Shown: piece after piece, positions 16,859 to 35,650 of the stretch
Layout: each line of letters starts with the position of its first letter
Numbering within the stretch: the stretch's first letter is position 1
Source: a virus
Taxonomy: Duplodnaviria; Caudoviricetes
Reading direction: 5' to 3' (one strand)
DNA length: 64,000 bases
IMG/VR virus record: IMGVR_UViG_3300032007_000001
Made by a program: the position numbers and the translations under genes
Notes under the pieces: generated by a model
Told to the model about the DNA's origin: nothing
Databases searched by the model: none
The model's input: only the letters and a program-made list of their open reading frames with translations

Positions 16859-17185
16859 GTGATAATGATGAAAAATAAAAAAATGTTAGGAACATTAACA
16901 ATTGAAAACATCATTAATGACGCAATTTATAAAAATGGAAAAATTGGATTTTGCGATGCTGAAAACGTTATGATGATTTTCATTACATTGGAGAATATGC
17001 AATTTTTCGTTATTGGAATGTATGAATTACTTACACATGATAGATATGATAAAACGTCAAAAGATTCAATGTTTGAAGTATATACTAATGAAGAAAAACA
17101 TTTTTTAACTATAAATAAATACAAAATTTTAACGTCTATCAACAATTTCTTAAAAAGTTACTATAAATTAAAAGGCGGCATATAA
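16859..17185 (+). CDS. C-terminal GL family protein (GI variant)
   Basis: Ends KLKGGI*. Confidence 0.65.
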   Translation: MIMMKNKKMLGTLTIENIINDAIYKNGKIGFCDAENVMMIFITLENMQFFVIGMYELLTHDRYDKTSKDSMFEVYTNEEKHFLTINKYKILTSINNFLKSYYKLKGGI

Positions 17186-18595: not shown

Positions 18596-18647
18596 ATTTT
18601 TTACAATACATGGTTTACAAATGATTTTTTTATGATATAATAAATTA

Positions 18648-18825
18648 CGGTTGGAATGAATTAAGTGCTTTTTTGGCGGCTCCTTTCGGCAAATGCTTAA
18701 TTCGTGAAAACTCTTCGTCATTGGATTTGGATTTCGGATTGATAACACATATCCCTGAACCAATTCGGAATCCTCTCCTCAAAATTAAGACCAACACTTA
18801 ATTTGCTTAGTGTTGGTCATTTTTT
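18648..18825 (+). ncRNA. Putative two-hairpin sRNA with anti-SD loop (copy 1)
   Basis: Own promoter 18614-18641 and terminator 18789-18825, no sense ORF; stem GAATTAAGT/GCTTAATTC enclosing CTCCTTT; 19-nt linker shared with 29240-29390. Confidence 0.65.
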
Positions 18826-18885: not shown

Positions 18886-19182
18886 ATGCCCAATTTTTAT
18901 AGTCCAAAAGGTAATTATGAAGTTTGGGACAAAAAACCTAAAGGTTATTTTACATAAAAAGAATGGTTAAAAATACATCCTCCAGAAGTATATGTTCCAA
19001 CAAAAGAAGAACAACTTCAAAGTTTAGATATAACATATGAAAATCAAAAAAATGAATTGATTAAGCAATACAATGACGATATCATGCATCAAGATACTAA
19101 CGCTGCTAATAATGATATTACAGCCATGCAGGAATTAGATGCATGGTATGATGAAGAATATAATAAAATAAAAGGAGAATGA
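18886..19182 (+). pseudogene. Tail-fibre assembly/accessory-like gene with in-frame TAA at codon 24
   Basis: AAAGGAG RBS; MPNFYSPKGNYEVWDKKPKGYFT*KEWLKIHPPE... stays open to TGA 19182. Confidence 0.65.
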
Positions 19183-20385: not shown

Positions 20386-20449
20386 AATTTTTTGTAATTT
20401 ATGGTTTACTTTTTAATTTCTTGTGATATAATAAACAAGTAAATGTAAT

Positions 20450-23903: not shown

Positions 23904-24521
23904 ATGTTAGGAGCATGGGAAGTAAAAGTTAGTACTAGCGGTATGCCGCAGAAAGTAGCAACTGCATTTGACCAGCTTAATGAAATGGTTGGTGCTGAAT
24001 ATACTTTTGTAGCATATCTTGGTAGTCAGGTTGTGAATGGCACTAATCATGCTGTTCTCGCAGAACAGACTATCGTCGCTGGCAAAGACACAAAGAATGC
24101 CGTAGTTGTTATTTTCCGCGAAACCAAGGAAGGCGTAGCACTTTCTGGTATTGAACGCGTTCTTGAAACCGGCGGAGAACTTGGTGGAATTAAAGTAGAC
24201 GTTACTACTAATATTCCAGCAGAAGCAAAAGATGCTTTCACTACGACTATGGAAGGATTTGTTGGATGCAAGATTGAATTGATTGCTCTCCTTGGAACAC
24301 AGATGACAAAGGGCAATAACTATATCTTCGCTGCAACTTCAACAAGTGTTACACCAGAACCTGAAACAAAAGTTTGCATGATTACAGTCAATCCAATGAC
24401 TAAGGACATTGCATTTGCAGATTTGCTCGCAGCAAAACATGATGTTATGTCACTTGGTTATGCATTTACTTGGTTGAAACGCGGTACATCCTTTGGTGCA
24501 CCTCTTGGCGAATGGCCATGA
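23904..24521 (+). CDS. Internally duplicated protein ending PLGEWP*
   Basis: Two repeats of P....AF......VG......A.LG.Q...G.N; GGAGG RBS. Confidence 0.75.
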   Translation: MLGAWEVKVSTSGMPQKVATAFDQLNEMVGAEYTFVAYLGSQVVNGTNHAVLAEQTIVAGKDTKNAVVVIFRETKEGVALSGIERVLETGGELGGIKVDVTTNIPAEAKDAFTTTMEGFVGCKIELIALLGTQMTKGNNYIFAATSTSVTPEPETKVCMITVNPMTKDIAFADLLAAKHDVMSLGYAFTWLKRGTSFGAPLGEWP

Positions 24522-25083: not shown

Positions 25084-25605
25084 ATGAATATCATAAAAAA
25101 CAGATTACAAAAATTAGCAGAAAATAAATTTTCGTATAAATTTGCTTCTAATTGGGTATATTGGGTAGAAGGATTTGATAAGATGGAAGAAGAACTACCA
25201 GAATATTGGTCAGAATTTTATAGAGAAGCAAAAGAATTTGTAGAAAATGACTTTAATTCTTTTAAGAATGAATTTGTAGAAATAGCACAAAGAGATATAC
25301 CAAGCATTATTGATTTAGCCTTTACATTAAAGCAAGACGATGCTATTATGACTGTAACGTATAACGAAGAACCAACCGATGATATATTGGAAAAAACAAA
25401 AAATTGGATAGAAGGACAATATAGTGACGGTTGGGGAGAAGGATTAGAACAAAATGCTTTTTCCACTTATGAAGATGAAGATGAAATGGATTATGAAGAT
25501 GAAGAAACTGGTGAAACATATACAGAATATGAACCAGTACAACGAAATATTTCTGTAAAATTACATCCTTTTGAACAAAAATTTTCGATAAATGTCTTAA
25601 AATAA
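25084..25605 (+). CDS. Acidic protein with basic N-terminal leader (MNIIKNRLQKLAE)
   Basis: GGGAG RBS; WIEGQYSDGWGEGLEQ motif. Confidence 0.7.
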   Translation: MNIIKNRLQKLAENKFSYKFASNWVYWVEGFDKMEEELPEYWSEFYREAKEFVENDFNSFKNEFVEIAQRDIPSIIDLAFTLKQDDAIMTVTYNEEPTDDILEKTKNWIEGQYSDGWGEGLEQNAFSTYEDEDEMDYEDEETGETYTEYEPVQRNISVKLHPFEQKFSINVLK

Positions 25606-25640
25606 TAAAAGAGAAGTCATAATGACTTCTCTTAATTTTT

Positions 25641-25717
25641 TGGCAGAGGCGGTAGGAGTCGGACCTACGAATATTCGGGTCAAAGCCGAACGTGTTCAAC
25701 CACTTCACCACGCCCCT
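25641..25717 (-). tRNA. tRNA-Gln(TTG)
   Basis: TTCGG-CT TTG AC-CCGAA; GCCA end; T-loop TCCGACT variant. Confidence 0.9.
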
Positions 25718-25757
25718 ATTTTAAGTATGCAATTTGTATAAATGTTTTGTTTTTAAT

Positions 25758-25834
25758 TGGAGCGTACAGTTGGATTTGAACCAACGAATAACGGTTTTGC
25801 AGACCGTGCCCTTAGACCACTTGGGTATGTACGC
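25758..25834 (-). tRNA. tRNA-Cys(GCA)
   Basis: ACGGT-CT GCA AA-ACCGT; TCCA end. Confidence 0.93.
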
Positions 25835-25836
25835 AT

Positions 25837-25914
25837 TGGCTCCCGAGGTAGGACTCGAACCTACGACCTACGGTTTAACAGACCGTTGCTAACCACCAGC
25901 TGAGCTACTCGGGA
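25837..25914 (-). tRNA. tRNA-Asn(GTT)
   Basis: ACGGT-CT GTT AA-ACCGT; GCCA end. Confidence 0.93.
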
Positions 25915-25919
25915 ATATT

Positions 25920-26005
25920 TGGTTGGTCGGGTAGGATTTGAACCTACGAAGGATTACTCCGCGTGATTTACAGTCACGATGCTTTAACCACTTGCATACC
26001 GGCCA
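25920..26005 (-). tRNA. tRNA-Tyr(GTA)
   Basis: CGTGA-CT GTA AA-TCACG; long variable arm; ACCA end. Confidence 0.9.
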
Positions 26006-26038
26006 TTATATTTTTTAATACTTTATCAAACAATAGAT

Positions 26039-26067
26039 ATTATATCATGTTTCAATAAATTTGTAAA
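26039..26067 (-). promoter_or_regulatory. sigmaA-type promoter of tRNA cluster 2
   Basis: TTTACA-N17-TATAAT with TG. Confidence 0.78.
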
Positions 26068-26083
26068 TATTTTTTTATGAAAA

Positions 26084-26356
26084 TCAAAGACCAAATGTTG
26101 TTATAATTATTTTTTTGCTATTAAAAATTTTTTTTATGATTTCATCTTCAAAAGAATATGTCCAATGTTTATTATTTTTTCTAAAGTGTCTCTTCAATTC
26201 TTTTTTATCAAACATTTTGCACGGTTCGAATAAAAAATTAGTTGTATTATCCATAAAAAATGCTATTTGATAATTCATTACAACAAGATAGCAATCTAAA
26301 TAAAATTTTATACCATGTATTTCAAATGTATGATAATACTTCATTTTTATTCTCAT
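26084..26356 (-). CDS. C-terminal GL family protein
   Basis: Ends ITTFGL*. Confidence 0.7.
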   Translation of the reverse strand: MRIKMKYYHTFEIHGIKFYLDCYLVVMNYQIAFFMDNTTNFLFEPCKMFDKKELKRHFRKNNKHWTYSFEDEIIKKIFNSKKIIITTFGL

Positions 26357-28815: not shown

Positions 28816-29179
28816 TGGTGGAGATGAGGAGAATCGAACTCCTGTCCGAAACAAGACTTCAAATGGGTCATTACCGCTGCTAGCTGGCTTATCGCACCAG
28901 TATACGTATAAAAGAAAGGGGGATTTGATGAAAATGGTTTTCTTAATTCTTAAGAAAAGTCCAAAGAAATAGTGGGAATTATCTGAAACCCAGTAGCGGC
29001 TTCTCCACAGTCTTACTGGGGGCTGGTAAAGCGTGGCAGACTTACGCCGGCATTACCTTACGCAGCGATGGCAACATAATCGTTGTCAGTTATTTTTTTG
29101 AAACGTTTTTTAGGATTCAGTTTCTTCATCCCGCGGAACCTCAAATGATTTCTCATCCCGTCGAAACCATTGCATCCCC
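28816..29179 (-). ncRNA. ssrA: tmRNA
   Basis: 5' GGGGATGCAATGGTTTCGACGGG; 3' GGAGTTCGATTCTCCTCATCTCCACCA; tag (A)DNDYVAIAA* after ATAACT. Confidence 0.95.
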
Positions 29180-29239
29180 AATATTCAATTTTATGTATTT
29201 ACAACATAATATATGTTTGTGTTGAAGTAATAACCATTT

Positions 29240-29390: not shown

Positions 29391-29434
29391 GAAGATATTA
29401 TACCATAGAATTTCTAAAAAGTAAATAACTTTAG

Positions 29435-34450: not shown

Positions 34451-35650
34451 TTATCCTTTCAATTCGACCAATGCATAGATAGTAACCTGTGCAGGGTCAT
34501 ATACTATATATTCATTATTAATAAGGTCAGCACCTTTATGTGCAAATACGCTATCATAATGTCCCATATCTTCCAATTTCTTCTTGTTCAAATTATAACA
34601 CGAAGAATCGTGTTTGTAAATATTCTTATATTTTCCAACCCTTACAGAAAATACAGCCATAAAAGCATTATTAGAATTTCCTCTTGCCCAATAGCTCCCA
34701 TTTGCAGAAGTATATCCATAACTTTTTTTAGCTCTATCAGCGAAATAAACACCTGTTCCAAACATAGCACCACATGTTGTTACTCCAGAAGGCCTGATAA
34801 GCATTCCATTCTTAAGAATCGAAAGCCAATTTTCGTTTCTGCTGCCGTGCCAAAACTTCATTTCAGTACGATGCAAATCATTAATTTGTTTTTTACTATC
34901 TTTTGCATAACGGTCTTGTGTAGATTTATTTTCAACGTACCAGCAATTTACATACTTATCTTTAATATCTCCAAGCATTGAAATAACTTCGTCTTTCAAT
35001 GCTTTATCACATTCTTTCATTGTAATGCCAAGAGAGTCGAGAATTGAATCGTTGTTAGAAATAGGAGTAGAAGTATTCATATAAACCTTGGTTGACATAA
35101 CATCAAGAAGGTCTGATTCGCGTTTCAAAATCTTTGCAAAATCATTTGTGCTTTCAGCAAGATAATACTGTACCTTTTTCATTTTACGAGGAATAATGGA
35201 AAACAAATCGATAAGTGCAGTATTAAAAGTATTTACATTGTATTTTTTCAAATCAGCCATTTCGTCCAATATCGTTCTCGCTTCATCTACCATGGCCTGA
35301 GTGACTTGATTATCCTTTACCTTATAGTTATCAACCAATGTCTTGTTTGCATATCCTTGAAGGCGGAAAATAACATCTGCAATGGACTTAGATTTGATAT
35401 CAGCAAATGTATTGCTAACCGAAACGTTGTCTACCAAATCTTCAATGAGATGAGATTTGTCAACGTATCCTTTTTTGATTTTGGAACGATAAATCTTGTC
35501 CCATTCATTGATAGGCTTAGAAAGAGTTGTACAAGTTGCACCAATACGACCATATTTAATTGTAAATGTATTTCCATTCGGAATCATATCATAAAATTTG
35601 TTATGATTATCAGCAGATACAAACACCAAATGTACAGGTTTCATTATCAT
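34451..35650 (-). CDS. PARP-like ADP-ribosyltransferase (WGR + helical regulatory + catalytic domains)
   Basis: HNKFY.M...YGRIG...KIKKGY (WGR); LFSIIP helical region; H-Y-E triad FWHGS, GVYFA, NEYIVY. Confidence 0.9.
   Translation of the reverse strand: MIMKPVHLVFVSADNHNKFYDMIPNGNTFTIKYGRIGATCTTLSKPINEWDKIYRSKIKKGYVDKSHLIEDLVDNVSVSNTFADIKSKSIADVIFRLQGYANKTLVDNYKVKDNQVTQAMVDEARTILDEMADLKKYNVNTFNTALIDLFSIIPRKMKKVQYYLAESTNDFAKILKRESDLLDVMSTKVYMNTSTPISNNDSILDSLGITMKECDKALKDEVISMLGDIKDKYVNCWYVENKSTQDRYAKDSKKQINDLHRTEMKFWHGSRNENWLSILKNGMLIRPSGVTTCGAMFGTGVYFADRAKKSYGYTSANGSYWARGNSNNAFMAVFSVRVGKYKNIYKHDSSCYNLNKKKLEDMGHYDSVFAHKGADLINNEYIVYDPAQVTIYALVELKG

Follow-up and report, generated by a model that had tools for sequence, protein, structure and literature searches.

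Two paralogous genes for a structured small RNA with exposed anti-Shine-Dalgarno motifs in a megaphage, one of them preceding the phage tmRNA gene

Two small RNA genes in a megaphage

Our examination covered a 64-kb window of a megaphage, by which we mean the whole stretch of 64,000 nucleotides that was analyzed. Two genes for structured small RNAs lie within it, copy 1 on the plus strand and copy 2 on the minus strand (Table 1). The window has a G+C content of ~27%, contains 13 tRNA genes and one tmRNA gene, and encodes as accessory proteins a Cache-MCP chemoreceptor, a PARP-like enzyme, radical SAM enzymes and a tail-collar protein. tRNAs, tmRNAs and translation proteins are known cargo of giant phages, and to our knowledge the regulatory RNAs of these phages are almost unmapped. 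Genes in the window feature strong AAAGGAG or GGAG ribosome-binding sites and promoters that resemble TTTACA-N16/17-TGnTATAAT, which suggests that the phage infects a Bacillota-type host. The AAAGGAG motif occurs 25 times in the window versus ~6 times expected, mostly at gene starts, and the two such sites that run antisense to the small RNAs have no start codon behind them.

Table 1. Positions of the small RNA genes, their elements and associated transcription signals in the window.
Feature	Coordinates	Strand	Details
Copy 1 promoter	18614-18641	+	TTTACA, 16 nt, TGaTATAAT; 11/12 matches plus upstream TG
Copy 1 RNA core	18648-18788	+	P1, hairpin 1, linker, hairpin 2, C/U tail; start ~18648
Copy 1 loop-1 motif CTCCTTT	18680-18686	+	hexaloop CUCCUU of long hairpin 1
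Copy 1 linker	18707-18725	+	
Copy 1 hairpin 2	arms 18729-18741/18761-18773, loop 18742-18760	+	
Copy 1 C/U tail TCTCCTC	18774-18780	+	
Copy 1 intrinsic terminator	18789-18825	+	10-bp stem 18789-18798/18809-18818, T run to 18825; stem in minimum-free-energy fold
tRNA-Lys promoter	20405-20432		same class as small RNA promoters
tRNA array promoter	26067-26039		same class as small RNA promoters
Copy 2 promoter	29425-29397	-	TTTACT, 17 nt, TGgTATAAT; 10/12 matches plus TG
Copy 2 RNA core	29390-29240	-	P1, hairpin 1, linker, hairpin 2, tail; length ~150 nt
Copy 2 loop-1 motif CCTCCTTT	29357-29350	-	
Same copy 2 motif within hairpin 1, CCUCCUUU	29357-29350	-	between two small apical hairpins
Copy 2 linker	29330-29312	-	
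Copy 2 hairpin 2	29309-29297/29266-29254	-	perfect 13 bp
Copy 2 C/U-rich tail CUCUUCCUCUUU	to 29240	-	
Spacer from copy 2 to tmRNA	29180-29239	-	A/U-rich; no terminator, no promoter
Phage tmRNA gene	28816-29179	-	RF00023, 104.7 bits, E 7e-40, full-length (model positions 1-374)
Terminator closing copy 2 and tmRNA unit	28806-28787	-	8-bp stem, 5 G-C pairs, then T run

Both copies are preceded by strong TTTAC(A/T)-N16/17-TGnTATAAT promoters of the class that serves tRNA genes. A preliminary description of this DNA had given copy 1 its own promoter and terminator and had placed copy 2 behind a similar promoter, and these features, together with all others that it listed for the two copies, were located where it had positioned them. 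Copy 1 is ~175 nt long with its terminator, and ~140 bases comprise the folded RNA. The gene just upstream of copy 1 has no match to a Pfam domain, a tRNA-Lys gene lies 1.6 kb from copy 1, and copy 2 has as its upstream neighbor the gene of a radical SAM enzyme, a protein that is also encoded on a recorded contig of 504,291 bases.

We considered whether the loci encode a small protein or consist of a promoter followed by chance hairpins. The preliminary description had reported no sense ORF in copy 1; strictly, a sense frame of 42 amino acids with a TTG start is present at 18673-18801, and copy 2 contains sense frames of 48 and 59 amino acids. However, none of these frames has a ribosome-binding site, the motifs shared by copies 1 and 2 are read in different frames such that no common reading frame exists, and in a third member of the family, L033 (described below), a 1-nt deletion shifts the frame of copy 1. 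For these reasons the copies are predicted to be non-coding, as the preliminary description had implied. Folding z-scores of -4.4 for copy 1 and -5.4 for copy 2 relative to shuffled versions, along with the covariation reported below, favor a structured RNA, and a coding or chance origin is barely credible.

Copy 2 is predicted to share a transcription unit with the tmRNA gene

Copy 1 and L033 each form an independent transcription unit with a consensus promoter and an intrinsic terminator, whereas copy 2 has the promoter and a 3' end that has to be deduced. We found no terminator for copy 2 between position 29425 and the terminator that follows the tmRNA gene, and within 29450-29150 the only promoter-like site is the copy 2 promoter and the number of terminator-like sites is zero. 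The tmRNA gene, which specifies the tag peptide DNDYVAIAA (ARAGORN), begins 60 nt downstream of copy 2 and has no promoter of its own. That copy 2 lacks a terminator and runs toward this gene had been overlooked in the preliminary description. Because only one promoter is present and no terminator separates them, copy 2 and the tmRNA gene constitute one predicted transcription unit, and the tmRNA appears to be transcribed from the copy 2 promoter. We infer that the 3' end of copy 2 is made by processing at the 5' end of the tmRNA, which would release the small RNA.

This arrangement raises the alternative that copy 2 serves the tmRNA precursor only as a 5' leader or as a processing element, with copy 1 as a duplicated remnant, a reading that agrees with the presence of one promoter and the lack of a terminator from 29425 to the tmRNA terminator. 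However, copy 1 and L033 have their own promoters and terminators without a tmRNA and keep their structure by compensatory change, and the linker shows no significant complementarity to the tmRNA, all of which makes a leader role very improbable.

A third member supports homology of the two copies

A motif scan of metagenomes returned one true homologue and two chance matches. The homologue, L033, occupies positions 1220-1363 on the minus strand of a 1,457-base metagenome contig and is the third member of the family. Its promoter hexamers are the same as those of copy 1, and a terminator that differs from that of copy 1 is found at the same place. The L033 RNA is a stand-alone gene: it stops at a terminator of its own, no gene follows it, and it faces a convergent tRNA array; that array, Tyr-Asn-Cys-Gln, is the same array as the one at 25641-26005 in the window. 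We built a covariance model, R2, from copy 1 and L033 with copy 2 excluded. In a search of the window with R2, copy 2 was the best non-self match at 39.6 bits (E ~5e-7, by a rough calibration), and the runner-up scored 18 bits. Because a model built without copy 2 recovers copy 2 at this score, the comparison identifies copies 1 and 2 as homologous and not as chance look-alikes. The two copies are paralogous genes of a new, unannotated phage small RNA family.

The family as found has three members, two of them in one genome, and therefore the conservation of its motifs rests mainly on one paralogue comparison. All three members are situated amid stable-RNA genes, with the tmRNA gene at copy 2, the tRNA array at L033 and tRNA-Lys at copy 1, and the neighboring genes are different at each of the three. 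A cis-regulatory leader or riboswitch was rejected, as L033 faces the tRNA array, copy 2 precedes the tmRNA gene and copy 1 precedes an interrupted small frame.

Searches of Rfam 15 at the gathering threshold and at E up to 10 assigned neither copy to a family and returned only chance matches of the snoRNA type at 12-21 bits against thresholds of 41-80. Since no Rfam match was obtained at any threshold used, the copies are not members of RsaE/RoxS or another curated family. With the score of copy 2 against R2 and the covariation described below, this outcome bears out the earlier proposal of an unannotated structured non-coding RNA family. The preliminary description had also proposed a covariance check and a search of phage genomes, and although the former established homology and covariation and L033 was found, neither GenBank phages nor IMG/VR yielded a member. 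Specifically, BLAST against GenBank phages returned nothing for the copy 1 region and, for the region of copy 2 and the tmRNA, matches limited to segments of 36-47 nt in the 3' end of the tmRNA, and tblastn with the radical SAM neighbor returned nothing from the same phages. Motif scans of IMG/VR with three patterns gave only chance matches in coding regions, as checked by eye and with the model, and a search of IMG/VR for the 5' end of the tmRNA yielded no match. A strict motif scan of GTDB was likewise empty, and a loose linker pattern gave no homologous sequence among the at least 120 matches listed, as judged with nhmmer and by eye. The radical SAM neighbor has 16 homologues in the protein database; in two distant IMG/VR relatives identified through this protein (32% identity), the RNA was absent across the whole 170-kb and 201-kb records. 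No match to the RNA occurred on an IMG/VR contig that contains an exact 31-nt stretch of the tRNA-Cys of the window, and the RNA was not found in five bacterial MAGs of mixed taxa or in 151 genomes sampled from the class to which one of these, a Lachnospiraceae MAG, belongs.

A conserved architecture supported by covariation

The RNAs are closed by P1, a 4-bp helix that covaries between GGUU:AACU in copy 1 and L033 and GCUU:AAGC in copy 2. Inside P1, the apex of a long hairpin 1 displays CUCCUU, which forms a hexaloop in copy 1 and L033 with a closing pair that changes from C-G to U-A. In copy 2, the apical motif CCUCCU is single-stranded and flanked by two small apical hairpins. Hairpin 1 is followed by the linker, which is identical at 16 of 19 positions between copies 1 and 2, as the preliminary description had reported. 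Its conserved sequence is CUUCGUYAUUGGA, of which only the 10 bases CUUCGUYAUU are truly unpaired; the first four bases of the 19-nt segment belong to P1, and the final GGA can pair with the tail through a short outer helix of GGA(G) with UCC/CUCU. Thus, what had been described as a 19-nt linker combines 10 unpaired bases with strands of the two flanking helices, the 3' strand of P1 before them and the 5' strand of the outer helix after them. Hairpin 2 comprises 13 bp, the top of which, UUG:CAA within the motif AACCAAU, is conserved; its loop reads CAU..YCCUG, and a C/U-rich tail follows the hairpin. The loop-1 motif is predicted to be unpaired with a probability of at least 0.9 in all three members, and the linker and 3' tail are predicted to be unpaired as well, such that CUCCUU and CUUCGUYAUU are both conserved and available as potential seeds. 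The preliminary description had held that conservation between the copies resides in the structure and the single-stranded motifs, which agrees with these predictions. It had also held that the stems differ completely, which is accurate except for the conserved top of hairpin 2.

Across the three sequences, 11 of the 38 predicted pairs are changed on both sides and yet remain paired, a count that none of 500 shuffles reached and that compares with 0-3 pairs in controls with slid partners. Hairpin 2 of copy 1 differs from that of L033 by 12 substitutions in 26 stem positions, all of which preserve pairing (four pairs with two-sided and three with one-sided change). The many G-U pairs in the structure fix which strand is transcribed. 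The loops and linker of copy 1 and L033 show only three single-base differences, namely an inserted U, a G-to-U bulge and a deleted A. Because the two phages share ~90% identity in the spacer that separates tRNA-Cys from tRNA-Gln, which corresponds to a neutral divergence of only ~10%, the identity of these loops says little about selection. The real evidence for selection on the unpaired motifs is the paralogue pair, the stems of which have completely diverged apart from the top of hairpin 2. Comparison of copy 1 with L033 shows the hairpin-2 stem to have evolved faster than neutral sequence, a pattern that points to mosaic exchange or to selection for change.

Covarying stems combined with invariant junction and loop nucleotides are also a property of riboswitch aptamers and ribozymes, and we therefore weighed the idea that the unpaired blocks form a tertiary core that is ligand-binding, catalytic or ribosome-associated and tied to translation or to tRNA and tmRNA biology instead of mRNA pairing. 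The location of all three members beside stable-RNA genes fits this idea, and the linker GGAU/GGAG could pair with AUCC/UUCC in loop 2, as read from the three sequences. However, the candidate tertiary pairings are all short and, because every block is C/U-rich, ambiguous. The lack of an Rfam family even at E up to 10 and of a common regulated gene downstream further argues against a structured core, which we regard as quite unlikely.

The design resembles that of C-rich-region small RNAs

The C-rich-region small RNAs of Bacillota keep several pyrimidine-rich motifs unpaired in their loops and linkers, through which they can base-pair with G-rich Shine-Dalgarno regions (PMC5419742). Like RoxS/RsaE (RF01820), FsrA and CsfG, the phage RNA is of similar size and can stand alone with its own promoter and terminator. 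It also resembles RoxS/RsaE in presenting several unpaired pyrimidine-rich motifs able to pair with Shine-Dalgarno regions and in the Bacillota-type host that the promoters and ribosome-binding sites of the phage suggest. Its motifs, in contrast, are CUCCUU and CCUCU rather than CCCC, and there is no match by sequence or covariance model. Unlike RoxS/RsaE, it is encoded by a phage in two paralogues, one of which is fused to a tmRNA gene, and it has an additional invariant linker that is not C-rich.

Short pyrimidine motifs within hairpin loops or single strands also bind ribosome-binding sites in LhrC1-5 of Listeria and in RNAIII and SprD of Staphylococcus, and some of these UCCC-loop small RNAs occur in multi-copy families. 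The phage RNA similarly exposes such a motif both in the loop of a hairpin and in single strands, but its sequence is unrelated to theirs, it has no Rfam match and its hairpins are much longer (13-20 bp). In Alphaproteobacteria, the Cuckoo/alpha-r14 RNAs (CcsR, NfeR1) contain repeated hairpins with the anti-Shine-Dalgarno sequence CCUCC in their loops. The display of an anti-Shine-Dalgarno sequence in loops is common to these RNAs and the phage RNA, whereas sequences, architecture and host group differ. The design is closest to that of the C-rich-region small RNAs of Bacillota, which places the phage RNA as a new family of a known kind. Among other candidates, a retron RNA, an IS110 bridge RNA, an omega RNA, a T-box and a phi29 pRNA were rejected on anatomy: neither copy has an adjacent reverse transcriptase, recombinase or TnpB gene, and a regulated gene downstream is lacking.

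Pairing of the exposed motifs with start regions

The AAAGGAG ribosome-binding sites of the phage are complementary to the loop-1 motif CUCCUU(U) and to the 3' tail, and the preliminary description had proposed such sites as targets of the RNAs. We calculated duplexes of the loop-1 and tail segments of both copies with 89 start regions of the window that were picked for having a Shine-Dalgarno sequence. The mean energies were -9.3, -9.6 and -8.9 kcal/mol for three segments and -8.3 kcal/mol for the copy 2 tail, compared with -6.9, -6.0, -5.0 and -5.4 kcal/mol for the same four segments in mid-gene controls, a preference for start regions that is partly circular because the regions were selected for Shine-Dalgarno sequences. 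Three of the four segments also outperformed their own shuffles, but the copy 2 tail did not (-8.3 vs -8.1 ± 0.7). The complementarity to AAAGGAG sites is of a generic kind. The best duplex among the 89 start regions was between the loop-1 region of copy 1 and the start of the PARP-like gene at 35650 (-21.5 kcal/mol), in which the sequence ACGAAAGGAGUUGU (35620-35650, minus strand) could form 13 consecutive pairs, including three G-U pairs. The loop-1 segment of this duplex is partly within a stem, and one pair would be missing in L033; the PARP-like gene is a possible specific target and is offered as a lead only.

The linker behaved differently from what had been proposed. The preliminary description had pointed to an AUG-containing target of the linker, UCCAAUGACGAAG, but this complement is present at no start site in the 64-kb window and has only chance matches inside coding regions, at 17005 and 24392. 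The sole linker complement with one mismatch (24392-24404) is within a coding region and has no ribosome-binding site. Neither the linker nor loop 2 showed a preference for the start regions of the window, and the complementarity of the linker to the phage tmRNA and tRNAs was within the shuffled range. The arms of the hairpins, considered as guides, have no matches elsewhere in the window.

These results bear on the possibility that the RNA is a decoy, sponge or scaffold that acts by titrating or delivering a protein, for which CsrA of the host, a ribosomal protein and a phage factor are candidates. The blocks predicted to be unpaired would then be binding sites, most notably the linker CUUCGUYAUUGGA with its GGA and, in front of it, an A-rich stretch, which is compatible with the maintenance of four unpaired blocks between paralogues with diverged stems and with a linker that has neither a start-site preference nor a complement in the phage tmRNA and tRNAs. 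However, copy 2 contains a single GGA, which is far below the number in CsrA sponges, and a CsrA sponge was rejected on this basis. Furthermore, a scan of ten small neighboring proteins revealed no Pfam family, the gene upstream of copy 1 offers no match either and that upstream of copy 2 encodes the radical SAM enzyme, and the difference in neighbors among the three members likewise speaks against this reading. We consider a protein-binding role unlikely.

A candidate role in the control of translation

We estimate at even odds (probability roughly 0.5) that the two genes encode paralogous trans-acting regulatory small RNAs of the RoxS/RsaE/LhrC kind, which use anti-Shine-Dalgarno motifs to repress translation. 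Because the exposed pyrimidine motifs match ribosome-binding sites, the RNAs probably block translation of some messages. We infer that both RNAs are transcribed, that copy 2 is processed out of the precursor it shares with the tmRNA, and that the RNAs pair in trans and act as repressors. Host RNA polymerase would transcribe both genes from sigma-70/sigma-A-type consensus promoters, as for the phage tRNA genes, and copy 2 would be freed from its joint precursor with the tmRNA. Two long hairpin domains would keep unpaired the CUCCUU(U) at the tip of domain 1, the YCCUG in loop 2 and the CCUCU of the 3' tail. The loop-1 and tail motifs mimic the anti-Shine-Dalgarno end of 16S rRNA and would most likely pair with AAAGGAG-type sites on host or phage mRNAs, such that initiation would be blocked in the manner of the C-rich regions of RoxS/RsaE, LhrC and RNAIII. 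The invariant linker CUUCGUYAUU(GGA) could serve as a second, target-specific seed or as a protein-binding site.

Several considerations weigh against repression. Complementarity to almost all ribosome-binding sites confers no specificity on its own. The linker, which is the most conserved element, is not an anti-Shine-Dalgarno sequence and has no start-site complement in the window. Finally, a simple seed would require less than the ~45 nt of conserved unpaired sequence that the four blocks contain. A bolder variant, which we put forward as improbable, is that the RNA, instead of being an ordinary regulator of specific targets, is part of a phage takeover of translation, in which an abundant mimic of the 16S rRNA 3' tail is made together with the phage tmRNA and the linker is the handle for a dedicated partner. 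Such a mimic might mask Shine-Dalgarno sites in general or sequester a factor that ordinarily recognizes the anti-Shine-Dalgarno region.

This RNA gene family with covariation support displays the sequence with which the ribosome docks mRNA, and one of its copies is predicted to lie in a transcript with the phage tmRNA. If the RNAs repress translation, control of ribosome-binding sites at the RNA level would join the means by which megaphages redirect host translation, and an operon of small RNA and tmRNA, if real, would tie the RNA to ribosome rescue. The covariance model can be used for annotating related rumen phages.

Observations on neighboring sequences

Among the extended -10 promoter-like sites in the region from 17.5 to 30.5 kb, four of the seven best (at 18614, 20405, 26067 and 29425) drive RNA genes, which are the two small RNAs, tRNA-Lys and the tRNA array. 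Immediately after copy 1, a frame with a strong ribosome-binding site at 18886-19182 on the plus strand contains an in-frame TAA at codon 24 and 74 further open codons past it; the interruption could reflect a pseudogene, read-through or an assembly error.

The tRNA array at 25560-26100 on the minus strand and its counterpart at 640-1180 of the L033 contig are related as a mosaic, in which tRNA-Cys, tRNA-Gln and the spacer are 90-100% identical and tRNA-Tyr and tRNA-Asn are largely replaced. On the L033 contig, an HNH endonuclease gene is directly upstream of the array. The terminator stem at 25609-25633 differs from that at 1100-1124 of the L033 contig by paired compensating substitutions, at a rate well above the ~10% of the spacer, and the stems of this terminator and of hairpin 2 (18729-18773) suggest fast turnover or exchange.
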